A stretch of DNA of 46,059 nt from Betaproteobacteria bacterium (GTDB lineage: Bacteria > Pseudomonadota > Gammaproteobacteria > Burkholderiales > SG8-41), in NCBI GenBank assembly GCA_016183675.1, contig JACPEF010000033.1:1-46059 (forward strand), given 5' to 3'. A program made the position numbers and the translations under genes. Below the pieces are notes generated by a model. It saw only the letters and a list, made by a program, of their open reading frames with translations, was not told the origin of the DNA and ran no database searches. Below are positions 228 to 22,996 of the stretch, in pieces (position 1 is the first letter of the stretch; each line of letters opens with the position of its first letter).

Positions 228-956
228 TTATCCGCGTTCATCGGCGTTCATCGGCGGCTGAGTCAGAACGAATCGCGCGTCCACCGCGACGGCGCCATGC
301 TCGGAGACGATCAACGGGTTGACGTCGGCTTCGCGGATGTCGGCCGCGTGGGTCATGAGCAGCCCCCCTTCGCCGCCGATCCTGAGCAGCGCGTCCACGA
401 TCGCCTCGCGCGATACGGGTTTCCTGCCGCGCACGCCCTTGAGCAGCGCTGCGCCTTTGAGCTCGTCGAGCATCTCCTCCGCATCGCGCCGCGTGATCGG
501 GCAAATGCGGAACGAAACGTCGGCCAGCACCTCGATCAAGATGCCGCCCAGGCCCACCATGACGAGCGGCCCGAACTGCGGATCCCGCAAGCCGCCCACC
601 ACGATCTCCTGCCCGGCCGGAGCCATTTCTTCGAGCAGGAACCCGTCGATGCGCGCGTTCGCGATTTGCGGGACCGCCATCATCGCGCGCACCGCCTGCC
701 CCACTTCCTCCGCGCTCTTCAATCCCACCCTCACTCCGCCGGCATCGCTCTTGTGCGGGATGTCGGGCGACATCACCTTGAGCACGAGCGGCGGTTTCAG
801 CGCTTTGAGCGCCTGCTCCGCTTCGGCCGCGCTCTGCAACACGACCGATTTCGGCACCGCGACCGCGAAACCGGCGAGCAGTCGCTTGCCGGCGACCTCG
901 TCCAGCGCCGCGCGCTTCTGCTTTCTTGCTTCAGCGATCTCGTCGAAACCCGACAT
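228..956 (-). CDS. ATP-grasp domain protein of the acetate--CoA ligase (ADP-forming) family, beta-like subunit
   Basis: ORF 228-1040 trimmed to the ATG at 954-956 (MSGFDEIAEARKQ...). The extra N-terminal 28 codons lie inside a repeat. The sequence PPLVLKVMSPDIPHKSDAGGVRVGL...GFLLEEMAPAGQEIVVGG...GPLVMVGLGGILIEVLADVSFRICP is typical of this ATP-grasp module. Confidence 0.8.
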   Translation of the reverse strand: MSGFDEIAEARKQKRAALDEVAGKRLLAGFAVAVPKSVVLQSAAEAEQALKALKPPLVLKVMSPDIPHKSDAGGVRVGLKSAEEVGQAVRAMMAVPQIANARIDGFLLEEMAPAGQEIVVGGLRDPQFGPLVMVGLGGILIEVLADVSFRICPITRRDAEEMLDELKGAALLKGVRGRKPVSREAIVDALLRIGGEGGLLMTHAADIREADVNPLIVSEHGAVAVDARFVLTQPPMNADERG

Positions 957-963
957 AGACCCT

Positions 964-1167
964 AAATTAGCCGCCAAGGCGCCAAGAACGCCAAGGAAAC
1001 CAAAAACAACAATGAAAATAACTTCAAGAACCGCAACCAATCACGTTCTTGATCCCGCTGGAGTTCTTGTGGTTCCGTCCAGTTGATCGTGTTCGCGGCG
1101 GTCTTGGCACTATTCGCGGCTCAATTATTGTTCTTCTTGGCGGCCTTGGCGTCTTGGCGGCTAATTT
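964..1167. repeat. Long inverted repeat built from GCCAAG-type 8-9-nt units
   Basis: The left arm AAATTAGCCGCCAAGGCGCCAAGAACGCCAAGGAAACCAAAAACAACAAT is matched by the reverse complement of the right arm ATTATTGTTCTTCTTGGCGGCCTTGGCGTCTTGGCGGCTAATTT (ends at 1167). An inner hairpin TCAAGAAC...GTTCTTGA lies near 1024-1052. The stop codon of the biotin carboxylase gene (1161-1163) is inside the right arm. Confidence 0.75.
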
Positions 1168-2513
1168 GCGGTTTGGCCGAGCACTTCGGCAATGAGGCCC
1201 GTGTGCACGCGCCCCGCGCGAAACGGCTCCGAGCGCAGCACCGCGAGCGCCGCCGGGATGTTGGTCTTCGGCCCCTGGATCTCGAAGGCTTCCAGTGCCC
1301 CGCAGAGCCGCTCGATCGCCCGCGCGCGTGTGGGCGCGTGCACGATCACCTTGGCGATCATGGGGTCGTAGTGCGGCGTCACGTCGCGTCCCTCCGCATA
1401 GCCGGTCTCTACTCGAACGCCCGGGTCCCGCGGCGGCCTGAACACCTTGAGCTTGCCGGGCGACGGATGGAAGCTCCTGGGATCTTCCGCGTACACCCGC
1501 GCCTGGATGGCATGGCCCCTCACTTCTAACCGTGCGGGCAGAATCTCCGCGAGCTTTTCGCCGGCGGCTGAGCGGATTTGCGCTTGCACCAGGTCCACCC
1601 CCGTGACTTCCTCGGTGACGCCGTGCTCGACCTGCAGCCGCGTGTTCATTTCGAGAAAACTGAAACACCCGTCCACGCCCATCAGCATCTCCACCGTGCC
1701 GATGTTGTCGTAGCCCATCTTGCGCATGATGTCGGCGATTTGCCCGGCCACCGCCGTCGCCCGGTTGCGCTCGATCCCTGGCGCAGGCGCCTCCTCGATC
1801 ACTTTCTGATTGCGCCGTTGCGTCGAGCAGTCGCGCTCGAATAAGTGGGTGGCTGCGCCGTGCGCGTCGGCGAGCACCTGGAACTCGACGTGGCGCGGGC
1901 GCTCGATCAGCCGCTCGAGGTACACATCGGCGGTGCCGAAGCCGCGTGCCGCCATCGAGCGCGAGCGCTCGACCGCTTGCGTCAACTGCGCCTCGTCCTG
2001 GGCGGGCAGCATGCCGATGCCGCCGCCCCCGCCTGCGGGCTTCACGAGAACGGGGAATCCGATCGCGCGCGCGGCCGCGGCGATCGCCTGGGCGTCCGCC
2101 GGCAGCACTTCCGAACCCTGCGACATCGGCATGCCGTAGCGGGCGGCGAGCCCGCGCGCGCGGGTCTTGTGGCCCATCGCTTCGATCCACTGCGGCGATG
2201 GTCCGATAAAGCGAACCCCCGTCTGTGTCACCTTTTGCGCAAACGCGGCGTTCTCGGAGAGAAAGCCATAGCCGGGGTGCAGCGCGTCGGCGTGCGACCT
2301 GCGGAGCACGTCGATCAACGCGTCCTGGTCGAGGTAGCTCTCGCGTGCTGGCGCCGGACCGATGGCGCAGGTCTCGCTCGCCATCGCGAGATAGGGCGCG
2401 CCCGCATCGGCTTCGGAGTACACCGCGACCGAGTGGAGGCCCATCTCGTTCAACGCCCGCAGCACCCGTGCCGCCACCGCCCCGCGATTCGCGACCACCA
2501 CCTTGTTAAACAC
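1161..2513 (-). CDS. Biotin carboxylase subunit of a biotin-dependent carboxylase
   Basis: The 451-aa ORF shows the classic N-terminus (M)FNKVVVANRGAVAARVLRA and HPGYGFLSENAAFA plus an ATP-grasp core. The track start is TTG at 2516; GTG at 2513 gives the canonical MFNK start. Confidence 0.93.
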   Translation of the reverse strand: MFNKVVVANRGAVAARVLRALNEMGLHSVAVYSEADAGAPYLAMASETCAIGPAPARESYLDQDALIDVLRRSHADALHPGYGFLSENAAFAQKVTQTGVRFIGPSPQWIEAMGHKTRARGLAARYGMPMSQGSEVLPADAQAIAAAARAIGFPVLVKPAGGGGGIGMLPAQDEAQLTQAVERSRSMAARGFGTADVYLERLIERPRHVEFQVLADAHGAATHLFERDCSTQRRNQKVIEEAPAPGIERNRATAVAGQIADIMRKMGYDNIGTVEMLMGVDGCFSFLEMNTRLQVEHGVTEEVTGVDLVQAQIRSAAGEKLAEILPARLEVRGHAIQARVYAEDPRSFHPSPGKLKVFRPPRDPGVRVETGYAEGRDVTPHYDPMIAKVIVHAPTRARAIERLCGALEAFEIQGPKTNIPAALAVLRSEPFRAGRVHTGLIAEVLGQTAN

Positions 2514-2526
2514 CAAGAAAACCTTT

Positions 2527-2605
2527 CACCACAGAGACACAGAGGCACGGAGACAGCGGAGATCAAGAAAATCATTAACCTCTGTGTTCTCTGTGCCTCT
2601 GTGGT
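2527..2605. repeat. CCACAGAG-type composite palindrome, copy 2
   Basis: CACCACAGAGACACAGAGGCACGGAGACAGCGGAG ... ACCTCTGTGTTCTCTGTGCCTCTGTGGT. It fills the spacer between the carboxyltransferase stop (2612) and the biotin carboxylase start. Confidence 0.8.
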
Positions 2606-2611
2606 TAATCT

Positions 2612-4147
2612 TCAGTAGCTCGTCGGCCAGGTGCGCATCAGGTGCTGGCCGACGCCCCGGGTCGTCCGAAGCTGGTGGACGTCGAGCATGCGAATCAGGT
2701 AGTCGCGCGTCTCCTCCGGGCGGATCACCGCCTGCGCCGCGAATACGGAAGCGAGGCCCCACACGTCGCTGCCCTTGCGGATGTCGGCGAAGGCTTCCTC
2801 GAAGCCAGGCTCGCCCGGGCCCACGCCGTGCACGATCCTGGTCGCGAACTCGGGGCTCATGAAGCTCACCTCCGCGGTCGGCCACGCCGCGACGTCGTCG
2901 GAGTGGCGGCCGCCGCCCATGCACACGTAGGCGCGCCCGTAGCTCTTGCGGATGATCACGGAAAGCCGCGGCACGGTCACCAGCGTCATCGCATTCATGA
3001 AATTCATGATCTTGCCCGGCGCGCCGGCCTTCTCCGCCTCCGTGCCGATCTGGAAGCCCGGCGTGTCCGCGAGCAGGACGATCGGCACGTTGAAGGAATC
3101 GCACAGCACCAGGAAATCGGTGATCTTGCGGCAGGCGTCCGCGTCGAGCGCGCCGCCCCGGTGCAGCGGGTTGTTGGCGACGATGCCGACGCTTTTCCCC
3201 CCGAGGCGCGCGAGCGCGGTGACCGCGCTCTTGCCGAAGCGGGGCTTCAGCTCGAAGAACGTGTCCTGGTCCACCAGCGCCTTGATGATTCTCCGCATGT
3301 CGTAGACCTGGGTGCGGCTCTCGGGAAGGATCGAGAACACGGTCTTCATGTCCGCGCCCGACCCCGCCGGCACCGGCGCATCGGGCGGCGCTTCCATGTG
3401 ATGACTCGGCAGATAGGAGAGAAAGCGGCGGATCGCCTGGAACACCTCTGCCTCGGTGTCCACCACCTGGTCCACGAGGCCCGTGGTCTCGGCGTGCAAG
3501 CGCCAGCCGCCGAGCTGCTCGACGTCAGCTTTTTCGCCGAGCGCCATCTCGACGAGCCGCGGGCTCGATACCGCCATGGTTGCGCCCTTGTGCATCACCG
3601 CGAAGTCGGCGCAGCACGCCAGCCACGCGGAGGAACCGAACGAGGGGCCCAGCACGGCGGTTGCAAGCGGGGCCTCGCGCGAGCGGCGGAACTGGGTGAG
3701 GTCGTTGCCGAGGAGCTGCCCCATGCCGCGCGAGCCCATCGCGTCGGGCAGCCGCGCGCCGGTGGATTCGCCGATGATGACGAGCGGGACGCCGCGCTCG
3801 GTCGCGGTGCGCTTCATGTGGGCGACCTTCTTGCTGTTGGTCGCGCTGGTGGAGGCGCCCTTCACGGTGAAGTCGTTCACCACGACCGCGACGTCGCGAC
3901 CGTTGATCCTGCCGTAGCCCGCGATCTTGCCGTCGGTCGGCGTCTCCTCCGCCTGTTCGGGATAGACCCCGGAAGTGCCGAACAGTCCGGACTCCATGAA
4001 GCTCCCGGGATCGACCAGCAGCGCCAGCCGCTCGCGCGCGTTGAGCTGCCCGGCTTTCCTGCGCTTCTCGAGCTTCTCCGGCCCTCCCATCGCGAGCGCC
4101 TTCGCGCGCCGCGCCTCGTATTCCGCCAACAATGTCTCGTACGCCAT
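2612..4147 (-). CDS. Acyl-CoA carboxylase carboxyltransferase (beta) subunit, paralog 1
   Basis: ORF 2612-4216 trimmed to the ATG at 4145-4147 (MAYETLLAEYEARRAKALAMGGPEKLEKRRKAGQLNARERL). Motifs GKIAGYGRINGRDVAVVVNDFTVKGAS and LLADTPGFQIG are typical of PccB/AccD-like carboxyltransferases. The C-terminus is ...RTWPTSY. Confidence 0.9.
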   Translation of the reverse strand: MAYETLLAEYEARRAKALAMGGPEKLEKRRKAGQLNARERLALLVDPGSFMESGLFGTSGVYPEQAEETPTDGKIAGYGRINGRDVAVVVNDFTVKGASTSATNSKKVAHMKRTATERGVPLVIIGESTGARLPDAMGSRGMGQLLGNDLTQFRRSREAPLATAVLGPSFGSSAWLACCADFAVMHKGATMAVSSPRLVEMALGEKADVEQLGGWRLHAETTGLVDQVVDTEAEVFQAIRRFLSYLPSHHMEAPPDAPVPAGSGADMKTVFSILPESRTQVYDMRRIIKALVDQDTFFELKPRFGKSAVTALARLGGKSVGIVANNPLHRGGALDADACRKITDFLVLCDSFNVPIVLLADTPGFQIGTEAEKAGAPGKIMNFMNAMTLVTVPRLSVIIRKSYGRAYVCMGGGRHSDDVAAWPTAEVSFMSPEFATRIVHGVGPGEPGFEEAFADIRKGSDVWGLASVFAAQAVIRPEETRDYLIRMLDVHQLRTTRGVGQHLMRTWPTSY

Positions 4148-4176
4148 CTTTTTATCCCTGTGCTTCGAACAAGTTA

Positions 4177-4266
4177 CCCGTGACGCAGTGACGCAGTGAC
4201 GCAGTGACGAAACCAATAAATCTTATTCTCTATTCCGTCACTTCGTCACCTCGTCACTTCGTCACC
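4177..4266. repeat. GTGACG-type composite palindrome (both arms present)
   Basis: The left arm is CCC(GTGACGCA)x3 GTGACGAAAC. The right arm CCGTCACTTCGTCACCTCGTCACTTCGTCACC is its complement with an 8-nt period. An AT-rich loop of about 20 nt separates them. Confidence 0.85.
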
Positions 4267-4278
4267 AGGCTGAGATTC

Positions 4279-4500
4279 TCAGCCGTCCAAAACGGCGACG
4301 ACCTGCCCCTCGGCTACCGCGTCCTTCTCCTTCACCCGGATCTCCTTGACCGTGCCGGGGTCCTCGGTGATCACGGGGATCTCCATCTTCATGGATTCGA
4401 TCACGATGAGGGTGTCGCCGGATTCGACCTTCTCGCCCGGCTTCGCCTTGACCTGCCACACGGTGCCGGTGATTTCGGATTTGACCTCGATGCGCGCCAT
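4279..4500 (-). CDS. Biotin carboxyl carrier protein (stand-alone biotinyl domain, 73 aa)
   Basis: ORF 4279-4563 trimmed to the ATG at 4498-4500 (MARIEVKSEITGTVWQVKAKPGEKVESGDTLIVIESMKMEIPV...). It has the biotin-attachment motif SMKM in a lipoyl/biotinyl fold context. Confidence 0.85.
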   Translation of the reverse strand: MARIEVKSEITGTVWQVKAKPGEKVESGDTLIVIESMKMEIPVITEDPGTVKEIRVKEKDAVAEGQVVAVLDG

Positions 4501-4574
4501 GGAAGCCGCCCGCTCGCGTTCGAATTGTTCCGGGCGCTCTCGTTCTGGTAGGATTCGGCGCAAATTCTAGCACG

Positions 4575-4663: not shown

Positions 4664-5350
4664 ATGATGCGGGGATTCACCACACGCCTGCTGCTGGCAA
4701 TCCTGGTCGTGGCGGTACTCGCCGAGCCGTTGCGTTCCCAGGAGCGCAAGCTCGAGCCGGCCGACGAGGCGGCGAAGGACGCCTCGTGGGTGAGCTTCAA
4801 GAACCGGCTGCTCGCCGCCCTCGAGAAGCGCGACCGCAAGTTCGTGCTCGGCATCCTTGACCGCAACGTCCGCAACAGCCTTAAAGGCCCGCGCGGCATC
4901 GCCGAATTCAGGAAACGGTGGGAACTCGACGCCGAGGACAGCCTTCTGTGGCGGGAGCTCCCGGCGGCGCTCTTCCTCGGGGCCGCCTACGTCAAACGCG
5001 AGAAAGGGCGGCGCGAATTGTGCGCGCCCTACGTGCTCGCCAGGTGGCCGGAGGATGTTGATCCCTTCGTGCACGGCGCGATCATCACGAAGGAAGTGCT
5101 GGTCAAGGCCGAGCCGTCTTCCGACTCGCGGACGTTGCAGGCGCTCTCCTATGACATCGTTTCCGTGGCCGACTGGGAGGTCGCCGACCGGAACGCCGCC
5201 GTGAAACAGCATTGGGTCAAGGTCAAGGTGAGGAGCGGCGAGGGGTACGTGCCCGAGGAGCAGATCCGCAGCCCGATCGAGCACAGCGCCTGCTTCGTCA
5301 AGACCGAGGACGGCTGGCGCATGACGGGCCTCGCGCCCGGCGGCGGATAA
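4664..5350 (+). CDS. Hypothetical secreted protein
   Basis: 228-aa ORF with the RBS AAGAGGAG just upstream. The N-terminus MMRGFTTRLLLAILVVAVLAEPLRSQE looks like a signal peptide. The C-terminal part looks like a bacterial SH3 domain, but that impression is weak. No family recognised. Confidence 0.65.
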   Translation: MMRGFTTRLLLAILVVAVLAEPLRSQERKLEPADEAAKDASWVSFKNRLLAALEKRDRKFVLGILDRNVRNSLKGPRGIAEFRKRWELDAEDSLLWRELPAALFLGAAYVKREKGRRELCAPYVLARWPEDVDPFVHGAIITKEVLVKAEPSSDSRTLQALSYDIVSVADWEVADRNAAVKQHWVKVKVRSGEGYVPEEQIRSPIEHSACFVKTEDGWRMTGLAPGGG

Positions 5351-6511: not shown

Positions 6512-6576
6512 GCTCCGGGCAGGCGGCTGCGCGTGCTACGATTTTCCCCGAAACTCGATCCACTGGAGGAGCGTCC

Positions 6577-6870
6577 ATGGTCAAACTGGAATTTCACGAT
6601 CCGTCGGGCGCGCTCGAGGTGACGCAGCCGCATGCGCCGCGGCTCGCGTCCCTCGAGGGCAAGCGCATCGGCTTCGTCAGCAACGAGCAGTGGCAGGCCT
6701 ACCGCATGCTGCCGATGCTGAAGGAGATGCTCGAGCAGGACTTCCGGGGCATCACCGTGCTGCCGATAGACGCCTACCCCCAGGGCAACGCCCTGATCGG
6801 CACCGAGGAGACGGCGGCGCTGGTGAAGAAGAGCCGCGTCGACGCCGTCATCGTCGGCAACGCGGCTTGA
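6577..6870 (+). CDS. N-terminal module of a candidate selenoprotein; conventional ORF ending at TGA 6868-6870
   Basis: ATG at 6577 preceded by GGAGGA (6565-6570). It translates as MVKLEFHDPSGALEV...SRVDAVIVGNAA followed by TGA. The same frame continues with no other stop to 8304 (see finding). Confidence 0.7.
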   Translation: MVKLEFHDPSGALEVTQPHAPRLASLEGKRIGFVSNEQWQAYRMLPMLKEMLEQDFRGITVLPIDAYPQGNALIGTEETAALVKKSRVDAVIVGNAA

Positions 6871-6966
6871 GGGGCCTGCGCCACAGCATGCGGCCGTGCA
6901 GCCGCTAGGATAGAAGCGCTGGGCATCCCGACCGTCACGCTGACGCGGACGGATTTCGTCGGGGTC

Positions 6967-8304
6967 ATGAAGAACGCCGTGTCCGGGATCGGGCTCGCGC
7001 CGGAGGCGGCGATGGTCACGTTCCCGGTCCACCTGTTCCTGCCGGGGAGCGACCTGACCTCCCTCAAGGAACGCAAGCGCGAGTTCTACGACGGCCTCAC
7101 GCGCTGGAAGTCCGAGTTCGCGCAGGCGGCAGGCTCGGCCAAGATGCTCGCGGTCGAGGGCGCCACCTACGAGGAGGCGCTCACCAAGGCGAATAACCTC
7201 CTCCTCACCAACTTGTGGGGCGACGGCTTGCCGCTGTGGCCGGCGACGCAGGAGCGCGTGGACTGGATACTCCAGGGCTGCCCGGCTCCGCGCACGCACG
7301 TGCTCGGCAAGTTCCCGCCGCGCGGCGGCGTCACCACTGTCGAGACCTGCGCCATCGCGCTCGCCATGGCGGGCGGGCGGCCGGAGTACCTGCCGGTCCT
7401 CGTCGCCGCCGTGGAAGCGTGCTTCGACCCGACGACGGGCTTCGACCAGCTGCAGGCCACTTCAGGCGGGCCGTTCCCGGCCGTCATCGTCAACGGGCCG
7501 ATCGCGAAGCAAATCCGCCTCAACTCGGGCTTCGGCCTGCTCGGGCCGGACCCGCAGCGCCCCGCCGGCGCGAGCATCGGGCGCGCGCTGCGCCTCCTGC
7601 AGCAGAACGTGGGCGGCGCGCTACCCGGCGTCGGCACGATGGCGATCTTCGGCGCCATGCGCTACACCAACGCGGTCTTCGCCGAGGACGAGGAGGGGCT
7701 GCCGCCGGGATGGCAGCCGCACGCGAGCCAGCGCCACGGCTTCGCGCCGGGCACGAACTCGGTCTCGGTTGTCTTCGCGAGCGGGGTGACCAACGTGCGG
7801 CGTCGCGGCGCGAAGAAGGAATCCCCGGAGGAAGACGCGCTGAACGGCATGTGGCGCATGGCGGACTTCATGCGCGCCCCCAACCTCGCGGCGCTCGCGG
7901 GATGGGAGAAGGGCACGCCCGGCATCATGATGCTCGCGCCGATCGTCGCGCGCAGGATGGCGGAGCTGGGCTGGACCCAGCGCTCGATCCGCGAGTTCCT
8001 GTGGGAGCACTCGAAGATCCCGATGGAGCAGATGCGCCGCGCCGGCGCGCCCGCCTGGATCGAGATCGACGCCAACCCGGTGACGCGCGCCAGCATCAAT
8101 CTTGACCCCTGGCCGATCTGCGAGAAGCCCGACAACATCGTGCTCATCGTCGCCGGCGGCGGGCACCCGACCCACAGCTACTGGCTGCAGGCCCACTCCC
8201 CGGCCGTGATTGGCCGCGTCATCCGCGTGCCGGAAACCTTCGACCGCCTGCTCGCCGACGCCGACCGCGATCTCGGCTGCGGCGAGGACGCCTGCCGGGT
8301 CTGA
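6967..8304 (+). CDS. Uncharacterised conserved-looking protein; probably the C-terminal continuation of the 6577 frame, not an independent gene
   Basis: 445-aa ORF from the first ATG. It is in the same frame as 6577-6870 and the 96 nt between them are open. I recognise no family with confidence. Confidence 0.7.
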   Translation: MKNAVSGIGLAPEAAMVTFPVHLFLPGSDLTSLKERKREFYDGLTRWKSEFAQAAGSAKMLAVEGATYEEALTKANNLLLTNLWGDGLPLWPATQERVDWILQGCPAPRTHVLGKFPPRGGVTTVETCAIALAMAGGRPEYLPVLVAAVEACFDPTTGFDQLQATSGGPFPAVIVNGPIAKQIRLNSGFGLLGPDPQRPAGASIGRALRLLQQNVGGALPGVGTMAIFGAMRYTNAVFAEDEEGLPPGWQPHASQRHGFAPGTNSVSVVFASGVTNVRRRGAKKESPEEDALNGMWRMADFMRAPNLAALAGWEKGTPGIMMLAPIVARRMAELGWTQRSIREFLWEHSKIPMEQMRRAGAPAWIEIDANPVTRASINLDPWPICEKPDNIVLIVAGGGHPTHSYWLQAHSPAVIGRVIRVPETFDRLLADADRDLGCGEDACRV

Positions 8305-9787: not shown

Positions 9788-11332
9788 CTAGTAGCTTGTA
9801 GGCCAATTCGCCAGCCGGTGCTCGCCCACGCCGTTCTTCAGCCGCCTGCGGTGCACTTGCAGCATGCGGATCAGGAAATCGCGCGTGTCGCGCGGATCGA
9901 TGACGTGCTGTGCCTCAAAGAGCCGCGCAAGCTCCCATGGCGTGGTATCGCGCTCGACCTCGGCGACGAGCTGCTTGAATTTCTCCGGGTCGTCTTCCTG
10001 TTTGACGCCGTATAAGACGTTCACCGAGGCGCGCGGGTCCATGAAGCCGAGGTCGGCGGACGGCCAGCACGCCAGCTCGTCGGTGTTGCGGCCGCCCCCC
10101 ATGTTGATGAAGGCCTGGCCGTAGCTCTTCCTCAGGATGATGGTGATCCTAGGCACCGTCACCAGCGAGAGCGCATTCATCCAGTTGATGACCTTGCCCG
10201 GCATGCCGCGCAGCTCCCCCTCCACGCCGATCAGGAATCCCGGCACGTCCACCAGGAACACGATCGGGATGTTGAAGGAGTCGCACAGCACCATGAAGCT
10301 GGTGGCTTTCTGGCAGGCATCGGCGTCGAGCGCGCCACCCTTGAACAGGGGATTGTTGGCGATGAAGCCGACGCTTTTTCCCTCGAGCCGCGCAAGTACC
10401 GTGGCGACCGATTTGCCAAAGCGCTCCTTCAGCTCGAAGCTAGAGTCCTTGTCCGCAACCGCCGCGATCACCTTGCGCACGTCGTACACCTGGTTGCGTT
10501 CCTCCGGCACGATCTCGAGCATCCTGCGGCACGCCTCGCCGGAGCCGGCCGGCACCGGTTGCTCGGGCGGGCGCTCCATGCTGTGCGCCGGCATGTAGGA
10601 CAGGAATTTCTTCACGGCGGCCAGCGCCTGCTCGTCGGTATCCACCGCCATGTCGGCGAGACCCGAGACGCCGGTCAGGAGCTTCCAGCCGCCGAGCTCC
10701 TCCGGGTCTATCGGCTTGCCGATCGCGATGGAGGTGACGTTGGGGCTCGCGACCGCCATGATCGCGCCCTTGCGCATCACCACGAAGTCCGACATCGCCG
10801 CGTACCACGCCGATGATCCGTAACACGAGCCGAGGAGGGCGGAAACCCACGGCGACTCGCGCAGGCGCTCGTACTCCGTGGGGTCCTGCGCCAGGATCGC
10901 CCGCCCCGAGGCGCCCATGCGGTCGGGCATGCGCGCGCCGGAGGATTCCCCGAGGAGCACGAGCGGGATGCCGCGCTTGCACGCGACGGTCTTCACGTGC
11001 CGGATCTTCTTCATGTTGACGACGCTGGAAGAAGCCCCCAGCACGGTGAAGTCGTTGGATACCAACGCGATGTCGCGGCCGTTGATGCGCGCGAAACCGG
11101 CGATCTTGCCGTCGGCGGGCGTCTTGTGCTCGACCTCGGGCCGGATGCCGCGCGCGTGGCGCCCCGACTCGATGAAGCTGCCGGGGTCCACCAGGCGCTC
11201 GATGCGCTCGCGCGCATTGAGCGCGCCCTGCGCTTTGCGCTCGGCGAGCTTCTCCGGCCCGCCCATCGCCAGCGCCTCGGCGTTCTTCGCTTCGAGTTGC
11301 TTCAATACGTCCTTGGCCGACACGCCCGTCAC
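9788..11332 (-). CDS. Acyl-CoA carboxylase carboxyltransferase (beta) subunit, paralog 2 (no BC/BCCP partner adjacent)
   Basis: 514-aa ORF collinear with the 2612-4147 protein. Shared features include AMGGPEKL, GKIAGFARINGRDIALVSNDFTVLGAS, VDVPGFLIG and the same C-terminal ...NWPTSY. The start is GTG at 11332, inside a repeat; GTG at 11323 is an alternative. Confidence 0.9.
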   Translation of the reverse strand: MTGVSAKDVLKQLEAKNAEALAMGGPEKLAERKAQGALNARERIERLVDPGSFIESGRHARGIRPEVEHKTPADGKIAGFARINGRDIALVSNDFTVLGASSSVVNMKKIRHVKTVACKRGIPLVLLGESSGARMPDRMGASGRAILAQDPTEYERLRESPWVSALLGSCYGSSAWYAAMSDFVVMRKGAIMAVASPNVTSIAIGKPIDPEELGGWKLLTGVSGLADMAVDTDEQALAAVKKFLSYMPAHSMERPPEQPVPAGSGEACRRMLEIVPEERNQVYDVRKVIAAVADKDSSFELKERFGKSVATVLARLEGKSVGFIANNPLFKGGALDADACQKATSFMVLCDSFNIPIVFLVDVPGFLIGVEGELRGMPGKVINWMNALSLVTVPRITIILRKSYGQAFINMGGGRNTDELACWPSADLGFMDPRASVNVLYGVKQEDDPEKFKQLVAEVERDTTPWELARLFEAQHVIDPRDTRDFLIRMLQVHRRRLKNGVGEHRLANWPTSY

Positions 11333-12442: not shown

Positions 12443-13950
12443 TTATCCGCGCTTCTTGCGCAGCTCGGGCGCGACCATGACGATCAATATGAACAGGGTG
12501 GCGATCATGAACGCGAGGCTGATCGGGCGCGTGAAGAACACGGTCGGATCGCCGCGCGAGATCAGCAACGCGCGCCGCACGTATTCCTCCATCAGCGGCC
12601 CGAGCACGTAACCCAGAATGAGCGGCGCGGGCTCGCACTCGAGCTTGGCGAGGATATAGCCGAGCACGCCGACGACGGCGCACAGATAGACATCAACCGG
12701 GTTGTTGTTCACGGCGTAGTTGCCGAGGCTGCTGAACATGATGACCGAGGGAAAGAGCCAGCGGTAGGGCACGCGGAGCAGCCTCACCCAGACCCCGACC
12801 AGCGGCAGGTTGAGGAGGAGAAGCAGGAGGTTGCCGATCCACATGCTGGCGATGACGCCCCAGAAGAGGTCGGGCTTCGTGATCATCACGTGCGGGCCGG
12901 GTTCGATGCCCTGCATCGTCATCGCGGCCAGCATCAGCGCCATCGTGGCGCTGGCGGGAAGGCCCAGCGTGAGCATCGGAATGAAAGCGGTCTGCGCGGC
13001 GGCGTTGTTGGCCGCCTCCGGCGCCGCCACCCCTTCGATCGCCCCCTTGCCGAAGCGCGACGGGTCCCTGGCCAACTTCTTCTCGAGCAGGTAAGTGGCG
13101 AACGAAGAGAGGGCCGGCCCGGTGCCCGGGAGCACCCCGAAGAACGCCCCGACCGCCGTCCCGCGCACCATGGGCCAGGACGAGTCCTTGAGGTCCCCGG
13201 CGGTCGGCATCAGATTGGCGATCCTGCCGGTGAACACCTCGCGGGCCTCCTTGCTCTCCAGGTTCATCACTATTTCCGCGACCGCGAACAGCCCCACCGC
13301 GATCACCGTGAAGCCGATGCCGTCGCTCAACTCGGGGACGCCGAACGCGTAGCGCGCCATTCCCGAGTTGACGTCGGTGCCGACGAGGCCGAGCAGCAGC
13401 CCCAGCACAGGCCGAGCAGCAGCCCCAGCACCACCATGGCGAGCCCCTTGACCGCATCGCCCTGGGTGAGCACGGCGGCGGCCGTGAGCCCCATCAGCAT
13501 CAGCGAGGAGTACTCGGCAGCGCCGAACGCGAGCGCCCATTCGCCGAGCGGCGGACCGGCGAGCGCGATCAGCAGGACCCCGATGCAGCCGGCGAAGAAG
13601 GAGGCGATCGCCGCGATCGCCAGCGCCGGGCCGGCGCGCCCCTGGCGAGCCATCTGGTAGCCGTCGAGGCAGGTCACCGCCGACGCCGTCTCGCCCGGCA
13701 GGTTGACGAGGATGGAAGTGGTGGAGCCCCCGTACTGCGCCCCGTAGTAGATGCCCGCGAGCATGATGAGCGCCGGCACCGCGGGCAGGTGGAAGGTGAG
13801 CGGAAACAGCATCGCGATCGTCACCAGCGGGCCGATTCCCGGCAGCACGCCGACCAGCGTGCCGAGCGCCACACCGATCAGGCAGTACGCGAGATTCTCG
13901 AGCGAAAACGCGACGCTGAAGCCGAGGATCAGGTGGTTCAGAATGTCCAC
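12443..13950 (-). pseudogene. tctA: tctA (TTT large permease) split by a frameshift
   Basis: The N-terminal half is in ORF 13327-13950 (MDILNHLILGF...KGLAMVVLGLLLGL). The C-terminal half is in another frame of ORF 12443-13957 (...VLGLLLGLVGTDVNSGMARYAFGVPEL...). The switch falls at a 23-bp tandem duplication at 13387-13432. Confidence 0.85.
13387..13432. repeat. 23-bp tandem duplication inside tctA
   Basis: GGCCGAGCAGCAGCCCCAGCACA (13387-13409) is followed directly by GGCCGAGCAGCAGCCCCAGCACC (13410-13432). Since 23 is not a multiple of 3, the duplication causes a frameshift. Confidence 0.9.
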
Positions 13951-14402
13951 AAGACACCCGGGAACAGCGGGTACGGTAACTTCAGCCCGAACACGAAGAC
14001 GCCGACGGCGAACGCGCCCATCACCGCGGTGAGCAGCAGCACCTCCGTGAAGCGGAATTCACGGCCGGCGAACGCGCCGACGAAGAAGGTCGCGACGAGC
14101 GCCGGAACGATGCCCAGCCGGTCCATGAGGAAGCCGAAGAGCACGATCGAGAGCGCGATCAGCGCGAGGGGCTTCCAGCCCCATTCTCCCTTGAACTTCT
14201 CGCCGGAGCGCAAGCCGCGGACGAGCACATAGACGCCGAAGAGGCACAGCAGGCCGCCCAGGACCGTCGGGAAATAGCCCGGGCCCATGCGCACTGCCGA
14301 GCCCATCGGGTAGTCGCGGGCGATGGCGACGGCGAGCCCGCCGATCGCGATGAACAGCAGCCCGGCGAGAAAATCCTTGTTGTCGCGCAGGTCAAATTTC
14401 AT
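13938..14402 (-). CDS. tctB: TctB family small membrane subunit of a tripartite tricarboxylate transporter
   Basis: 154-aa hydrophobic protein, MKFDLRDNKDFLAGLLFIAIGGLAV..., positioned between tctC and tctA. It overlaps the GTG start of tctA. Confidence 0.85.
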   Translation of the reverse strand: MKFDLRDNKDFLAGLLFIAIGGLAVAIARDYPMGSAVRMGPGYFPTVLGGLLCLFGVYVLVRGLRSGEKFKGEWGWKPLALIALSIVLFGFLMDRLGIVPALVATFFVGAFAGREFRFTEVLLLTAVMGAFAVGVFVFGLKLPYPLFPGVLWTF

Positions 14403-15688: not shown

Positions 15689-16150
15689 CTAATCGCCCGG
15701 GCCGAAGCCCCGCTCGTAGCGCGGACCTTTCGTGGTGCCGTCAACGGCGCGCCCGATGATGCCCTGCGAGAGGTCCTTGATCGCGATGAAGATGACGTCC
15801 TCCTCCGGCGTTGCGACCAGGGTGTGCGGGGCGTTCGCCGGGATGTAGATGAGGGTGCCGGCCGGCGCCACCACGCGCTTGCCGTTGACCGAGCCCTTGA
15901 GCGTGCCCTTCACCACGTAGTTGAACTGCTCGTTCCTGTGCGCGTGCATGCGCGACCCGGTGCCGCGCGGCTTGTGGATGTAGCCCACGAGCATCCTCTC
16001 GCCTTCGACCACCCCGCCGTGCGAGATCGAATAGCCGGTGCCCGCCGGGACGTCCTTCAATTTCGCCAGCGTGAACTGGTATCTTCCGCTGCCGCCCTTC
16101 ACCGCCCCCGCGGTCTTGGTCTTCCTGCCCGATCGCTTCTTCGCCACCAT
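15689..16150 (-). CDS. Cupin domain protein
   Basis: 153 aa. GSRMHAHRNEQFNYVVKGTL...GTLIYIPANAPH matches the two-motif cupin pattern (HxH...E...P.G..H). It has a Lys/Gly-rich N-terminal tail. Confidence 0.75.
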   Translation of the reverse strand: MVAKKRSGRKTKTAGAVKGGSGRYQFTLAKLKDVPAGTGYSISHGGVVEGERMLVGYIHKPRGTGSRMHAHRNEQFNYVVKGTLKGSVNGKRVVAPAGTLIYIPANAPHTLVATPEEDVIFIAIKDLSQGIIGRAVDGTTKGPRYERGFGPGD

Positions 16151-16157
16151 GTTTAAT

Positions 16158-16193
16158 CGCTCGTCACTTCATCACTGCGTCACTTCGTCACCG
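16158..16193. repeat. GTGACG-type repeat, single arm
   Basis: CGCTCGTCACTTCATCACTGCGTCACTTCGTCACCG, filling the spacer between the amidohydrolase stop (16197) and the cupin start (16150). Confidence 0.75.
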
Positions 16194-16196
16194 ATC

Positions 16197-17546
16197 TTAC
16201 AGGTAGTCGATGATCTTCCACTCGCCCGGCTTCACGTTGACGACGTTCTGGTTTTTTCCGGGACGGCGGTCGGCGTAGATCTTGCCCTCCTTCATTACCA
16301 TCCGGATATTCTTCTTCTCCTGCAGGCAGCGGATGTTCTTCAAGGGGTCGCCGTCCACCGCGATGATGTCGGCGAGCTTCCCGGCCTCGACCGTGCCGAG
16401 GTCCTTCTCCATCTTGATTGCGAGCGCGGCGTTGCGGGTGGCAGTGAGGATCGCGTCCATCGGCTTCATGCCGAGCTCCACATAGACCTCGAGCTCGCGC
16501 GCGTTGGTGCCCATCTCGGGATCGTAGCCCATGTCGGTGCCCATCGCGATCCTGACGCCCGCCTGGTACATCTTCTGGAACGTCCTGTAGCAGTAGGGCT
16601 GCAGCAGCTTCATCTTGTTGAGCACGAACTGCGAGGTGCCCTGGTCCTTGCGCGTCTGCATCGCGCGGTCGGTGCGATGCAGCAGTGTCGGCGTCATCCA
16701 CACCCCCGCCTCGGCAATCCTATCGGTCGTCTCGTCATCGGAGAACACCATGTGCTCGATCGTGTCCGCGCCAGCCGCGAGCGCCATGCGTTGTCCGAGC
16801 GGCGTGAAGCAGTGCACGGAAGCCGCCTTGTGGAAGGCGTGCGCCTCGTCCACGACCGCGTCCACCTCCTCCTGCGTCATGTTGCGGACGTCGGGCTCCT
16901 CCTTGTCGGTGCCGCCGCCGCCGGTGACGCAGGTCTTGACCACATCGCAGCCGGTGAGCAGATTTTCGCGGGCGAGCTTCCTGAGCTCCCACGGCCCGTC
17001 CGCGGTCTGGAACCCGAGCCGCTGCATGGCGCGAGGCTGGATGAGATCGAGGTGCGAGCCGGTGATCACGGTGAACCCGCCGATCAGCATGCGCGGTCCT
17101 TCGACGATGCCGGCGTTGATCGCGTCGCGCACCGCGCAGAGATGCGCGGTGAGGAGCCCGCGGCTCGAGTTGAGTCCCAGGTCGCGCAGCGTGGTAAAGC
17201 CCATGTCGAAGCAGAGCTGGGCGTGGAACAGCCCGTACATCTGCTGCAGCTCCGGCGTGATCTCCCACTGCGCCACGCGGTAGTTGTGGAAGGAGAGGCA
17301 GTTGAACATCATCGTGTGCAGGTGCGCATCCATCAGCCCGGGGAGCAGGGTGTAGCCCGAGCAGTCGATCACCTCCGCGCGCGGCGGAATCCTGATGCTG
17401 TCCCGGGTGCCGACGCGCTTGATGCGGCGGCCCTCGAGCGCGATCACCGGGTCCTTGAGCGGCTTTTTGCCGGTGCCGTCGATCAGCGTCGCGGCCTGGA
17501 TGAACTTCGGCGGGCCTTTCTCGCCGGGTGCCCTGATGTCCTGCAT
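16197..17546 (-). CDS. Metal-dependent amidohydrolase family protein
   Basis: ORF 16197-18425 trimmed to the ATG at 17544-17546, which is preceded by GGAGGA. It starts MQDIRAPGEKGPPKFIQAATLIDGTG...LLPGLMDAHLH (HxH metal motif), with ...GTDMGYD and ...GKLADIIAVDGDPL at the C-terminus, as in imidazolonepropionase/prolidase-like amidohydrolases. Confidence 0.88.
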   Translation of the reverse strand: MQDIRAPGEKGPPKFIQAATLIDGTGKKPLKDPVIALEGRRIKRVGTRDSIRIPPRAEVIDCSGYTLLPGLMDAHLHTMMFNCLSFHNYRVAQWEITPELQQMYGLFHAQLCFDMGFTTLRDLGLNSSRGLLTAHLCAVRDAINAGIVEGPRMLIGGFTVITGSHLDLIQPRAMQRLGFQTADGPWELRKLARENLLTGCDVVKTCVTGGGGTDKEEPDVRNMTQEEVDAVVDEAHAFHKAASVHCFTPLGQRMALAAGADTIEHMVFSDDETTDRIAEAGVWMTPTLLHRTDRAMQTRKDQGTSQFVLNKMKLLQPYCYRTFQKMYQAGVRIAMGTDMGYDPEMGTNARELEVYVELGMKPMDAILTATRNAALAIKMEKDLGTVEAGKLADIIAVDGDPLKNIRCLQEKKNIRMVMKEGKIYADRRPGKNQNVVNVKPGEWKIIDYL

Positions 17547-17626
17547 GCTCTCATCCTCCGAAATCGGTAGTGCACGCGCCTTCAACGCGCGTTTTACGGC
17601 GCCAGCGCGTCCGCTCCAACGCGCGC

Positions 17627-17789
17627 GGCCTCGGAACGGCCCTCTGAAAAACGGGCCGCATCGCGTCGGCCGCCGGCGCGCAGCCTCCGACCGGCTATCG
17701 GCAAGGTCTTGACTCTGCAATGTCGGCTGCCTTGCACGCCTCCGCGGTCGCACCCGCAAGCGGGCACCTGCTCCACGCTCCGGCGCGCC
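17627..17789. repeat. GC-rich REP-like unit, same family as the 26.5-27.2 kb array
   Basis: It shares these blocks with 26950-27154: GGCC(C)TCTGAAA, CATCGCGTCGGCCGCC, CGGCAAGGTCTT, and GTCGGCTGCCTTGCACGCCTCCGCGGTCGCACCCGCAAGCGGGCACCTGCTCCACGCTCCGGCGC. Confidence 0.7.
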
Positions 17790-17815
17790 AGTCAAACCGG
17801 AGCCGTGCTCCCGGC

Positions 17816-19067: not shown

Positions 19068-20102
19068 TCACGCGGCGAGCGCCTGCCGCTCGAGCTCGGC
19101 CGTGTAGCGCCCGAGGCAAGCGAGCCCGTTCATGCGCGCGCGGTGCAGGAGCGCCGCCTGCGCGATGGCGACATTGGAGGCGGACCCCTTCCACGCCTTG
19201 AGCGAAGGCTGCTGCAGCGCGCGCCCGTAGGAAAACGACAGCGGCCACGGCAGCTTCCCGGCGTACATCCGGTTCATCGCGTTCAGGTGCTCGGTGGCAA
19301 CCTCGTCACTCTGGCCGCCGGAGAGGAACACGACGCCGGCCACCGCCGCGGGCACCGTGCGCTTGAGGATCCTCACCGTGCGCTCGGCGACTTCCTCGAC
19401 GCCCGCCTGCTTCGGGCAGTCCTTGCCGGAAATCACCATGGAAGGCTTCAGCACCGACTGCTCGAGCGTGACGCGGTGGAGGTGGAGCGCTTCATAGACG
19501 GCGTTGAGCGTCCATTCGGTCGCTTCCTCGCAGCGCTCGACGGTGTGGTCGCCGTCCATCAGCACTTCGGGCTCGACGATCGGCGTGAGGCCCGCCGCCT
19601 GGCAGATCGCCGCGTAGCGGGCGAGCGCGTGCGCGTTGGCGGCGATGCAGGTCGAGCTCGGCATGCCGGCGCCGATGGTGACGACCGCGCGCCACTTGGC
19701 GAACTTGGCGCCCATCTTCCCGTACTCGGCGCAGCGCTTCGCCAGGTTGTCGAGACCTTCGGTCACCTTTTCGTTCGGGCAAAGCGCGAGGTCCTTGGCG
19801 CCGGTGTCGACCTTGATGCCGGGCAGGATGCCGTTCTTCGAGAGCAGCTCGACGAACGGCGTGCCGTCGGCGGATTTCTGGCGCATGGTCTCGTCGTAGA
19901 GGATGACCCCGCTGATGTACTGCCCGAGCCCCTTGGCGGAGAACAGCATATCGCGGTAGGCGCAGCGGTTCTCCTCCGTGCTCTCGACCTTGATGCCGGC
20001 GAAGCGCTTTTCGATCGTGCCGGTCGATTCGTCGGCGGCCAGGATGCCCTTGCCGGGCGCGACCATCGCTTTGGCGGTAGCTTCCAGGGGATGGGTGGAC
20101 AT
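19068..20102 (-). CDS. fba: Fructose-bisphosphate aldolase, class I
   Basis: 344 aa. GKGILAADESTGTIEKRF and the later Schiff-base region LKPSMV are typical of class I aldolases. Confidence 0.9.
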   Translation of the reverse strand: MSTHPLEATAKAMVAPGKGILAADESTGTIEKRFAGIKVESTEENRCAYRDMLFSAKGLGQYISGVILYDETMRQKSADGTPFVELLSKNGILPGIKVDTGAKDLALCPNEKVTEGLDNLAKRCAEYGKMGAKFAKWRAVVTIGAGMPSSTCIAANAHALARYAAICQAAGLTPIVEPEVLMDGDHTVERCEEATEWTLNAVYEALHLHRVTLEQSVLKPSMVISGKDCPKQAGVEEVAERTVRILKRTVPAAVAGVVFLSGGQSDEVATEHLNAMNRMYAGKLPWPLSFSYGRALQQPSLKAWKGSASNVAIAQAALLHRARMNGLACLGRYTAELERQALAA

Positions 20103-20113
20103 GAAGATCTCCT

Positions 20114-20205
20114 AAAAAGCCGTGAGTCGTGAATCGTGAATGGACCCGACCTGAGAACGATATTTTACCGCCTTCTCCTTAAGGCTCACGACTCACGGCT
20201 TTTTT
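20114..20205. repeat. Heptad-unit hairpin flanked by an A-run and a T-run (terminator-like in both directions)
   Basis: AAAAAGCCGTGAGTCGTGAATCGTGAATGG (7-nt units CGTGAGT/CGTGAAT) pairs with GGCTCACGACTCACGGCTTTTTT. The outer roughly 19 bp are perfectly complementary. Confidence 0.75.
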
Positions 20206-20253
20206 ACCTGTCGGAATAATACGGATGCATCTGATCGTTAAGGCGAACATCGC

Positions 20254-21681
20254 CTAAGCACGGCGATGTTCGCCTACCTTCACTATCTTCATGGTGTTGG
20301 TGCCGCCGGCCTTGCCGAAGGGCTCGCCGATGGTGAGGATCATGTAGTCGCCGTTCTGCACGACGCCGCGCTTGAGCAGCTCGTCCTCGGCCAGGTGCAG
20401 CGCCTTCTCCGGGTTGCGCGCGCCCTTGAACTTGACCGGATAGACGCCGCGGAAAAGCGTCACGCGGCGGCGCGTCTCGACCACCGAGCTCATGGCGTAG
20501 ATCGGCACGTTCGTGTGCATACGGGACATCAGCAGCACGGTCTTCCCGCTCTGGGTCATCGCCGCCACCGCCTTGATCTTGAGGTTGTTCGAGGTGAACA
20601 CCGTGGCGCGCGCGATCGCTTCCTCGACGTCGGCGGGGGGTTGCGCGTGCCGGCGGTCGAGCGCGAGCGTGTCCTCCTTCTCGGCCTCCACGCACACTCG
20701 CGCCATCGCGGCCACCGTCTCGACCGGGTACTCGCCGGTGGCGGTCTCCGCCGAGAGCATCACGGCGTCGGTGCCGTCGAGCACGGCGTTCGCCACGTCG
20801 GAGACCTCGGCGCGCGTCGGAATCGGGTTCGCGATCATCGACTCCATCATCTGGGTCGCGGTGATCGTGATCCGGTTCTTCTCGCGCGCCATGCGGAGCA
20901 TGCGCTTTTGCAGCGCCGGCACTGCGGCATCGCCCACCTCCACGGCGAGGTCGCCGCGCGCCACCATGATGCAATCGGAAGCGTCCAGGATGTCGGCGAG
21001 CGCCGGGATCGCCTCCGCGCGCTCGATCTTGGCCACCATCAGCGCCTGGCCGCCGGCCTTCTGCATGAGGTCGCGCGCCCACCGGATGTCGGCTCCCGAG
21101 CGGGGAAACGAGACCCCGAGGAAGTCCGCCTTGAGCTCGGCGGCGATCCGGATATCGTGCATGTCCTTTTCCGTCAACGCGGGCGCGGTCAGCCCGCCGC
21201 CCTTGCGATTGATGCCCTTGTTGTTGGAGAGCGCGCCGCCCTGTTCCACCACGCAGGTGATGCGCGGGCCCTTTACCGAGGACACACCGAGCACGATGCG
21301 CCCGTCGTCGAGCAGCAGCGTGTCGCCGGGGCGCACGTCGTTCGGCAGATTCGTGTAGTCGAGCCCGACGCGGTGCTCGTCGCCCGCCTCGCATTCGGCG
21401 TCGAGCACGAATTTCGCGCCCGCGCCGAGCGTCACCCTGCCGTCGCGGAATCGGCCGATCCGGATCTTGGGGCCCTGCAAGTCCACGAGCACGCCGACCG
21501 CGCGCCCGGCCTTGCGGGCGAGCGAGCGCACCAGCTCGACGCGCTTGCGGTGCTCGGCGGCGGACCCGTGCGAGAAATTCATCCGCACCACGTCGAGCCC
21601 CGCCTCGATCATGCGCGCGAGCGTCTTCGGATCGCTCGAAGCCGGGCCGAGGGTGGCGACGATCTTAGTCCTTCGCGGCAT
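20254..21681 (-). CDS. pyk: Pyruvate kinase
   Basis: 475 aa: MPRRTKIVATLGPASSDPKTLARMIEAGLDVVRMNFSHG...DLQGPKIRIG. Confidence 0.95.
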   Translation of the reverse strand: MPRRTKIVATLGPASSDPKTLARMIEAGLDVVRMNFSHGSAAEHRKRVELVRSLARKAGRAVGVLVDLQGPKIRIGRFRDGRVTLGAGAKFVLDAECEAGDEHRVGLDYTNLPNDVRPGDTLLLDDGRIVLGVSSVKGPRITCVVEQGGALSNNKGINRKGGGLTAPALTEKDMHDIRIAAELKADFLGVSFPRSGADIRWARDLMQKAGGQALMVAKIERAEAIPALADILDASDCIMVARGDLAVEVGDAAVPALQKRMLRMAREKNRITITATQMMESMIANPIPTRAEVSDVANAVLDGTDAVMLSAETATGEYPVETVAAMARVCVEAEKEDTLALDRRHAQPPADVEEAIARATVFTSNNLKIKAVAAMTQSGKTVLLMSRMHTNVPIYAMSSVVETRRRVTLFRGVYPVKFKGARNPEKALHLAEDELLKRGVVQNGDYMILTIGEPFGKAGGTNTMKIVKVGEHRRA

Positions 21682-21694
21682 CCGCCGTGCTCCG

Positions 21695-21802: not shown

Positions 21803-21808
21803 TCGGCG

Positions 21809-22990: not shown

Positions 22991-22996
22991 TTACCG

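Follow-up and report, generated by a model that had tools for sequence, protein, structure and literature searches.

The DNA analysed here is a stretch of 46,059 nucleotides (nt) from a betaproteobacterium of the Burkholderiales (contig JACPEF010000033.1 of assembly GCA_016183675.1; hereafter the window), and the gene in question lies on its forward strand at 6577-8304, where a glycerophosphodiester phosphodiesterase gene precedes it and a GNAT gene lies opposite. Direct translation of the window gives a single frame of 575 codons and a terminal stop across this interval, and the sole internal stop is a TGA at 6868-6870, as a first-pass annotation made from the letters of the stretch had pointed out. 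The list of open reading frames (ORFs) likewise places its two entries for this region, 6217/6577-6870 and 6967-8304, in one and the same frame. When the TGA is read as selenocysteine (Sec, U), the product runs ...VIVGNAA-U-GAC-ATAC-GRAAARIEALGIPTV..., so that U98 is followed by Cys101 (6877-6879) and Cys105 (6889-6891), at the positions first reported for them. The terminator of the 575-codon gene is a second TGA (8302-8304), and TGA is therefore an ordinary stop in this genome, with no genome-wide reassignment of UGA. When all of the window was searched for coding-like frames that a single TGA interrupts, with a G+C content at third codon positions (GC3) above 0.8 on both sides, this site and one antisense artefact were returned, and no other credible gene with an in-frame TGA emerged in the 46 kb. 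Our analysis makes it very likely that 6577-8304 encodes one Sec-containing protein in which a UGSC-family head is fused to a large C-terminal domain. This is the core of what the first-pass annotation had proposed, namely a fused selenoprotein of about 575 residues belonging to the UGSC family, and the proposal has withstood every test run.

The relatives of this protein, retrieved by a search over 5.8 billion proteins, fall into two classes. Relatives at 80-93% identity are all ~436-465 amino acids (aa) long, cover ~77% of the query and are called from a start after the TGA. Relatives at 63-66% identity are full length (575-576 aa) and carry the UGSC domain PF24696. All 12 of the full-length homologs that were aligned have Cys in the column of U98, in the context GNAA-C-GSC-STALGRAAAKLE (also given as GNAA-C-GSC-STALGRAA), and the residues that follow the Cys are conserved in them as well. 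Cys at position 98 of the homologs is what the first-pass annotation had proposed to look for. In the loci that encode Cys forms (L082-L086), the codon at this site is TGT or TGC. Met131, from which gene callers start the shorter protein, is replaced by Val in the Cys forms; the start codon at 6967 is therefore not a conserved one.

The homologous codon is TGA in 81 of 81 related loci (80 from a scan of GTDB representative genomes and one from a contig look-up), which encode proteins down to ~70% identity; chance would not produce such a recurrence. These loci come mostly from metagenome-assembled genomes (MAGs) of uncultured Burkholderiales/Betaproteobacteria, with a few labelled Rokubacteria, Deferrimicrobiaceae or Dormibacterota. 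Several others (L009, L010, L013, L049, L056 and L068, at 75-91% identity) are titled 'uncultured Streptomycetaceae' or 'Streptomyces sp.', apparently as taxonomic mislabels.

The codons between the TGA and Met131 evolve as protein-coding sequence. Codon differences were compared among 58 distinct Sec-form genes and expressed as a non-synonymous/synonymous ratio for each segment of the gene. In codons 99-130, synonymous differences affect 0.31 of the codon pairs, like the rest of the gene, and non-synonymous differences 0.10. The ratio is 0.31 for this segment, compared with 0.86 for codons 1-97, 1.06 for codons 131-189 and 0.78 for codons 190-575. The low level of non-synonymous change indicates that the stretch is translated and that it is the most constrained part of the protein, in keeping with the earlier remark that the 96 nt after the TGA look coding. 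The PF24696 match, which spans residues 7-150, also crosses the TGA. The patterns that the first-pass annotation had named as speaking for separate genes are not what the homologs display: the Cys forms read through the position of the TGA instead of ending there, the translation of 6871-6966 is the best conserved part of the protein, and a Val stands in the Cys forms where a downstream protein would have its initial Met.

The head of the protein matches PF24696 with 73.5 bits against a gathering score of 25, over profile positions 3-144 of 172. The NCBIfam model NF041046, which has 147 positions, gives 47.2 bits (E = 2.2e-12), below its equivalog cut-off of 125 bits. Judged by these scores, the protein is a UGSC-domain fusion, a relative of the short UGSC equivalog and not that protein itself. 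The family name suggested in the first-pass annotation applies at the level of the domain and fails at the level of the equivalog. The motif is U-G-A-C in the window, U-G-[AS]-C among members of the clade and C-G-S-C in the Cys forms, and U/C-x-x-C is kept in nearly every member examined, the exception being the representative P0210, discussed below. Of the longer U-x-x-C-x-x-x-C pattern noted in the first-pass annotation, only this first part is general; Cys105 is specific to the clade, as it is Leu in the Cys forms and absent from the Sec forms of Chloroflexota.

An AlphaFold2 (AF2) model of the full-length Cys-form homolog P0048 has a predicted local distance difference test score (pLDDT) of 74 and a predicted template modelling score (pTM) of 0.66, with moderate pLDDT in the head. 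In this model the motif follows a strand (residues 90-96) and opens a helix (residues 99-113). Redox-active U/CxxC pairs usually sit at such a junction, between the end of a strand and the N terminus of a helix. In Foldseek, the best matches of the P0048 model, searched at full length, are flavodoxin-like and B12-binding-like proteins, with ~110-180 aligned columns and modest template modelling (TM) scores, and include 2yxb (TM 0.50, target-normalised) and the flavodoxin domain of a flavodiiron protein. The short aligned length suggests that these matches belong to the head, the region of the model that they cover being unreported. A thioredoxin (Trx)-like fold has been suggested for UGSC (PMC2398784). 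No Trx-fold proteins were among the top Foldseek matches of the P0048 model, and a sequence search of the head against the PDB gave nothing significant, with the Trx-fold protein YphP (3fhk) at E = 0.55. In addition to the motif in the head, a second Cys pair, C568-x4-C573, lies near the C terminus, in a tail that is probably flexible (pLDDT below 50 at residues 567-575 of the P0048 model). This pair is invariant in 18 Burkholderiales-type Sec and Cys forms (alignment A1) and conserved at 90% or more in the larger A3 set. It is absent from distant members, which end ...DLGP.

A hairpin that begins 17 nt past the UGA has the properties of a bacterial selenocysteine insertion sequence (SECIS). 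Its stem is formed by GCGGC (6890-6894) and GCCGC (6901-6905) around the loop CGUGCA (6895-6900), and below the stem lie a bulged U6889 and a closing pair, A6888-U6906. Unguided RNAalifold analysis of 73 distinct 66-nt segments from related loci pairs GCGGC (6890-6894) with GYCGC (6901-6905) in a 5-bp stem with the loop CGUGCN. When the closing pair is added, the resulting 6-pair hairpin is 98.9% paired, compared with 20-74% for registers slid by 1-3 nt. The closing pair is A-U in 38 sequences, U-G in 17, G-C in nine and C-G in four, and is unpaired in five, while the partner of G6893 is C in 60 and U in 13. Both sites of the closing pair are third positions of Ala codons and are the most variable sites, yet they covary.

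Codon choice in the Sec forms points to the same element. Within the stem region the wobble sites of Gly106 (GGC in 58/58), Ala109 (GCC in 49/49), Arg107 (CGU in 55/58) and Ala102 (GCC in 55/57) are frozen or nearly so, and the last base of the loop varies freely in the synonymous-site profile. Rare codons cluster at the hairpin: CGU accounts for two of the 38 Arg codons of the gene, GCA and GCU for three each of its 74 Ala codons, and four of these six rare Ala codons are found in residues 97-110. The three distinct Cys-form sequences (L082-L086) keep one or two of the six pairs and use varied codons there. The UGC codon of Cys105 supplies the bulged U and the first two bases of the stem, and the clade-specific x-x-x-C extension may reflect the needs of the RNA as much as those of the protein.

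The published consensus for bacterial SECIS elements (bSECIS) specifies a loop of 3-9 nt, an upper stem of 4-16 bp, a minimum free energy (MFE) of -7.5 kcal/mol or lower, a G in the first two loop positions that is usually followed by G or U, and a distance of 16-37 nt from the UGA to the loop (PMC13188914). With its 6-nt loop starting C-G-U, 5+1 bp, a distance of 24 nt and an energy of -9.3 kcal/mol when folded in isolation, the hairpin falls within all of these bounds, and it would act as the SelB-binding SECIS that directs Sec insertion. The first-pass annotation had also placed a SECIS-like candidate at the stop, drawn as a long-range helix between GCGGCU (6862-6867) and AGCCGC (6900-6905) with GGCC/GGCC and UGC/GCA helices inside it. 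That structure can be drawn in the window and is not conserved. Across the 73 sequences it reaches 84% pairing, with a covariation of 0.052 compared with 0.049 in shuffles, and three of its pairs fail to form in many of the sequences: 9:42 in 35, 16:36 in 47 and 15:37 in 24. The 3' arm of the proposed helix pairs locally with 6890-6894 instead. A SECIS candidate is thus present at the stop as had been supposed, in the form of the local hairpin and not of the long-range helices.

The C-terminal domain (residues 190-575) gave noise only when searched against Pfam, NCBIfam, the PDB by sequence and the PDB by a 23-sequence profile. It belongs to a very large family: phmmer, run exhaustively over 1.84 billion representatives, collected 3,428 clusters at 50% identity with E <= 1e-3 and 2,029 with E <= 1e-10, and a profile search matched at least 7,769 of the 8,000 candidates scored. 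The named members among the profile matches are all called 'hypothetical protein', and many are from Chloroflexota. Among members at 31-50% identity (alignment A4), the invariant residues of the domain are D216, G217, T224, A259, G266, P273, G307, I334, R336, E370, P376, W379, G388 and V396; the same alignment contains no invariant Cys or His in the domain. An AlphaFold model derived from 83 diverse sequences is confident (pLDDT 88.6, pTM 0.91), and Foldseek found no match for it in the PDB at E <= 1e-3. The best fold matches were class I fumarate hydratase, Toblerone-fold cyclic amide hydrolases and cis-aconitate decarboxylase. Their TM scores are ~0.2 and the best E is 1.7e-3, and a relationship of the domain to class I fumarate hydratase, to the Toblerone-fold amidohydrolases or to PrpD is unsupported. 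The size of the family, the confidence of the model and the lack of a solved relative make the domain a reasonable target for structure determination.

Across this family the domain is mostly found behind UGSC heads. Most of its representatives of 420-470 aa begin inside the UGSC domain (...GIPTV...), and are thus truncated calls of the same fusion. In two Chloroflexota MAGs, C-terminal domain genes that seemingly stand alone are single frames of 572-577 codons, present as tandem paralogs and broken only by a TGA at codon 97-103, within a U-G-[SG]-C motif. The fourth of these copies (L088 8025-9661) has a UGSC head with the TGA and its C-terminal domain in another frame, and is either a real two-gene version or the product of a frameshift. 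Three of the four Chloroflexota paralogs have a stable hairpin with a G in the loop, 18-24 nt past the UGA, and the hairpin of the remaining one is weak. One of these hairpins, UGUGGCC-CGUGC-GGCCGCG at -10.2 kcal/mol, nearly matches that of the window. Other arrangements include a Cys form whose motif is CGAC (P0123), tandem duplicated C-terminal domains (P0176 and P0237), and a protein in which the domain is fused to a C-terminal ferredoxin-thioredoxin-reductase (FTR) catalytic domain (P0264).

Table 1. Features of the UGSC-fusion gene in the window, and tandem copies in Chloroflexota
Feature	Position	Strand	Basis or remark
Shine-Dalgarno sequence GGAGGAG	6565-6571	+	5 nt before ATG 6577; read from the sequence
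Predicted selenoprotein gene, complete: 575 codons and a TGA stop, single Sec-UGA inside	6577-8304	+	Single frame; Cys homologs of 575-576 aa collinear throughout
UGSC-family head, ~residues 1-178	6577-7110	+	PF24696 at residues 7-150; end coordinate extrapolated from the partial match
Probable Sec-encoding UGA (U98)	6868-6870	+	TGA in 81/81 related loci; Cys in 12/12 full-length homologs aligned
Cys101, likely resolving Cys of U-x-x-C	6877-6879	+	Kept in the Sec and Cys forms examined, P0210 excepted
32 codons from the UGA to Met131, skipped by gene callers	6871-6966	+	Ratio 0.31; inside the PF24696 match
Candidate bacterial SECIS hairpin	6888-6906	+	RNAalifold stem, 98.9% paired, within the bSECIS bounds
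Uncharacterised C-terminal domain, residues 190-575	7144-8301	+	No Pfam, NCBIfam or PDB sequence match; confident AF2 model
C568-x4-C573 pair (GCGEDAC), in a low-confidence tail	8278-8295	+	Invariant in 18 A1 sequences
Chloroflexota tandem Sec-fusion copies	L087 1765-3483, 4803-6536; L088 4386-6110, 8025-9661		Each split by gene callers

Several observations weigh against the reading of this gene as a Sec-containing redox fusion. Neither selA, selB, selD nor tRNA-Sec was found in the 46-kb window by a tRNA search, which returned no tRNA of any kind, and by Pfam searches of ~45 ORFs; since the window is ~1% of the genome, their absence from it is uninformative, neither for nor against. The 88 related loci likewise contain no tRNA-Sec, which is equally uninformative. 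No Rfam family reaches its gathering threshold. The MFE fold of the single sequence 6855-6930 is no better than that of shuffles (z = +1.7) and misses the hairpin; single-sequence folding is uninformative in this G+C-rich context. Four of the six hairpin pairs never vary, so that the covariation rests on the closing pair and one G-C/G-U pair, and the shuffles overstate significance because the sequences are related; the covariation evidence is real but narrow. The representative P0210 has a UGSC-like head without any Cys, GNAGGGAA, and the C-terminal domain is therefore not always in need of a redox head. Finally, no partner gene is shared across the family when the ORFs within 5 kb are clustered over 85 loci, and the fold matches of the C-terminal domain have TM scores of only ~0.2, with probabilities of 0.6 or less.

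The residue inserted at the UGA is probably Sec, a view that we hold with moderate confidence. The alignment with Cys, the identity of the family and the SECIS-type geometry favour Sec over any other residue, and the ribosome would then read the UGA at 6868-6870 by selenocysteine insertion. In an alternative form of readthrough, a near-cognate or suppressor tRNA would insert a standard amino acid such as Trp, Cys, Arg or Gly, and the hairpin would be a generic stimulator of programmed UGA readthrough. Such a mechanism would be compatible with the lack of Sec machinery in the window and of tRNA-Sec in the 88 related loci. We nevertheless regard it as improbable, given that the site aligns with the Cys of a U/CxxC motif, that the family has repeatedly been classed as selenoproteins, that the hairpin fits a SelB-type bSECIS (a 6-nt loop with G-U, spaced 24 nt from the UGA) and that the gene itself stops at a TGA, so that UGA is not globally reassigned.

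Still less probable is a pair of genes, in which a 97-residue peptide ending at the TGA would be followed by an independent protein of 445 residues starting from the ATG at 6967. That ATG is indeed present, close homologs are recorded as ~444-aa proteins, and one related locus (L001) is listed with a separate 97-aa 'UGSC (weak)' ORF and a 444-aa ORF. Against this, the intervening 96 nt are more strongly constrained at the protein level than any other part of the gene and lie inside the PF24696 match, the Cys-form orthologs are continuous over 575 aa with Val in place of Met131, and in other lineages the truncated calls begin at no fixed point within the UGSC domain. A pseudogene or a sequencing or assembly error can be dismissed almost entirely: TGA is one substitution from the Cys codons TGC and TGT, from which it would have arisen or been misread, and a TctA gene in the same window is apparently frameshifted, but the TGA recurs in all 81 independent loci, which derive from many different samples and assemblies and keep intact frames before and after it, it is shared by the divergent Chloroflexota paralogs and followed by a conserved hairpin specific to the TGA clade, and these comparative data effectively refute such an origin.

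A single Sec-containing fusion, which is the reading preferred here, corrects the protein model of many public records. This gene and relatives in very large number are publicly recorded either as a ~97-aa fragment together with a ~445-aa 'hypothetical protein' or as the longer piece on its own. Calls of 445 aa are without the first 130 residues, and with them the probable active-site Sec.

The genes around the fusion differ from one part of the family to another. The neighbours in L001 and in L082-L086 are not those of the window. TctC genes occur in 42 loci, in every orientation and in several copies even within single loci, and so probably just represent an abundant family. One sub-clade is marked by two genes: a family-III CoA-transferase gene in 13 loci, 12 of which have it downstream and on the strand of the fusion, and an HMG-CoA-lyase-like (HMGL-like) gene in 10 loci, likewise downstream and on that strand. 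The Chloroflexota loci have MmgE/PrpD, Iso_dh and peptide-type binding-protein neighbours. Loci with Cys forms often have an MFS transporter downstream, which may be linked to them in function. In L083-L086 this is a ~445-aa gene of the MFS/sugar-transporter family at ~9800-11200 on the same strand, in two neighbourhoods (L083/L084 and L085/L086); the copy in L086 is cut short (248 aa), and the window showed no such MFS gene. Taken with the weak fold resemblances of the C-terminal domain, the CoA-transferase, HMGL-like, MmgE/PrpD and Iso_dh neighbours hint at the metabolism of small organic acids.

Several other features of the window were recorded. On one side of the fusion gene, the reverse strand at 231-4563 encodes a biotin-dependent carboxylase set, made up of an ATP-grasp protein, a biotin carboxylase, a carboxyltransferase and a biotin carrier protein, and beyond the fusion gene there is another carboxyltransferase paralog (9791-11332, reverse strand). 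Two genes upstream of the fusion is an ORF of 228 aa whose composition is coding-like and which has no match in Pfam (4664-5347, forward strand). The TctA gene (12446-13957, reverse strand) is apparently divided between two frames, 13330-13950 matching profile positions 1-162 and 12446-13957 matching positions 155-423, which suggests a frameshift near 13400-13460 due to either a pseudogene or an assembly error. In the region ~16200-17800, one frame was tested (16038-17567, forward strand) and had no Pfam match. A contiguous set of central-carbon genes, for class I fructose-bisphosphate aldolase, pyruvate kinase, phosphoglycerate kinase, GAPDH and transketolase, occupies 19071-26356 on the reverse strand. 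At the far end, gyrB, dnaN and dnaA on the reverse strand are followed by yidC on the forward strand (39121-46059), and the window therefore adjoins the chromosomal replication origin.

With respect to function, the UGSC head would provide a built-in selenol/thiol redox module. U98 and C101 are likely to form a redox-active selenol/thiol pair, a proposal in which we have moderate confidence. In the proposed mechanism, Sec98 would attack and Cys101 would resolve it to a selenenylsulfide. More tentatively, and with low confidence, the head may be a tethered redox or nucleophilic module, recycled by a cellular thiol reductant, that serves a catalytic site of the C-terminal domain around D216, T224, R336 and E370. 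The substrate would probably be a small organic acid, and the C-terminal Cys pair might act as a shuttle. A redox partnership between head and C-terminal domain is supported by the alternative FTR-type fusion in P0264.

A broader possibility, which we consider doubtful on present evidence, is that these proteins constitute a new class of selenoenzymes. In such a class, a catalytic domain of ~385 residues with no solved fold relative would work with a tethered Sec-x-x-Cys module, or in some relatives with an FTR-like Fe-S/disulfide module in its place, to carry out reductive chemistry on small organic acids in thousands of soil and groundwater bacteria. If it exists, the class would be an analogue of the glycine and proline reductases that is evolutionarily unrelated to them, and it would have been invisible in annotation because gene callers split its genes at the UGA. 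Handles on the role of the Sec are offered by D216, T224, R336, E370 and W379, by the FTR-type fusion, by the Chloroflexota tandem paralogs, and by the sub-clade linkage to CoA-transferase, HMG-CoA-lyase-like and PrpD-type genes.

Four known systems can be compared with this gene. The prototype of the bacterial SECIS is that of Escherichia coli fdhF. The hairpin described here resembles bacterial SECIS elements in being intragenic and just 3' of the UGA, and in its 6-nt loop with G-U at loop positions 2-3, its 5-bp upper stem and its bulged U. It differs in its lack of sequence similarity to a curated Rfam family and in its short stem; below the bulge its support is a single covarying pair, and the binding of SelB to it is a prediction. 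The second comparison concerns mechanism. GrdB and PrdB, the substrate-specific selenoprotein B components of glycine and D-proline reductase, cleave a small organic acid reductively with Sec as the nucleophile, and a Cys close by then resolves the Sec. The motif of PrdB is UxxC (PMC2398784, table). The likeness is one of working principle and not of family: the protein showed no sequence relationship to these components and no match to Pfam GRDB (PF07355), and no gene for a pyruvoyl-subunit partner lies nearby.

The third system is the UGSC family itself (that of Zhang and Gladyshev, PF24696 and NF041046). The UGSC-containing protein was called 'a selenoprotein of unknown function' in 2007 (PMC1976440). 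In the Global Ocean Sampling (GOS) data, UGSC, which has a UxxC motif, ranked with the most abundant families of selenoproteins (255 Sec forms and 21 Cys forms) and was enriched in the non-marine samples (PMC2398784). A survey of 2016 gave UGSC counts of 26 and 33 (PMC5029168), and a review of 2026 lists UGSC among the prokaryotic selenoproteins whose functions 'remain largely uncharacterized' (PMC13188914). The gene in the window shares with this family the U-G-x-C motif followed by ...LE..GIPTV and a PF24696 score above gathering, and Sec forms outnumber Cys forms here as they do in GOS. It differs in having U-G-A-C and not U-G-S-C, while its sister sequences have either, and in its length of 575 aa, with an extra domain of ~385 aa, against a model of 147 positions.

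A 'UGSC/Unknown_1 fusion' from GOS is mentioned in Fig. S1A of a 2008 paper (PMC2398784). Unknown_1 may be the same as our C-terminal domain, which has thousands of members and occurs in soil and groundwater Burkholderiales and Chloroflexota. The gene is thus a rediscovery of a known kind of selenoprotein, with a fusion architecture that had at least been glimpsed before. What our analysis adds is a comparative definition of the SECIS, an account of Cys105 at the level of the RNA, the extent of the fusion family and of its systematic mis-annotation, and the size of the C-terminal domain family together with its status as a fold without solved relatives. By 2007 UGSC was already current as the name of a selenoprotein family, and the fused C-terminal domain gives the first concrete handles on the role of its Sec.

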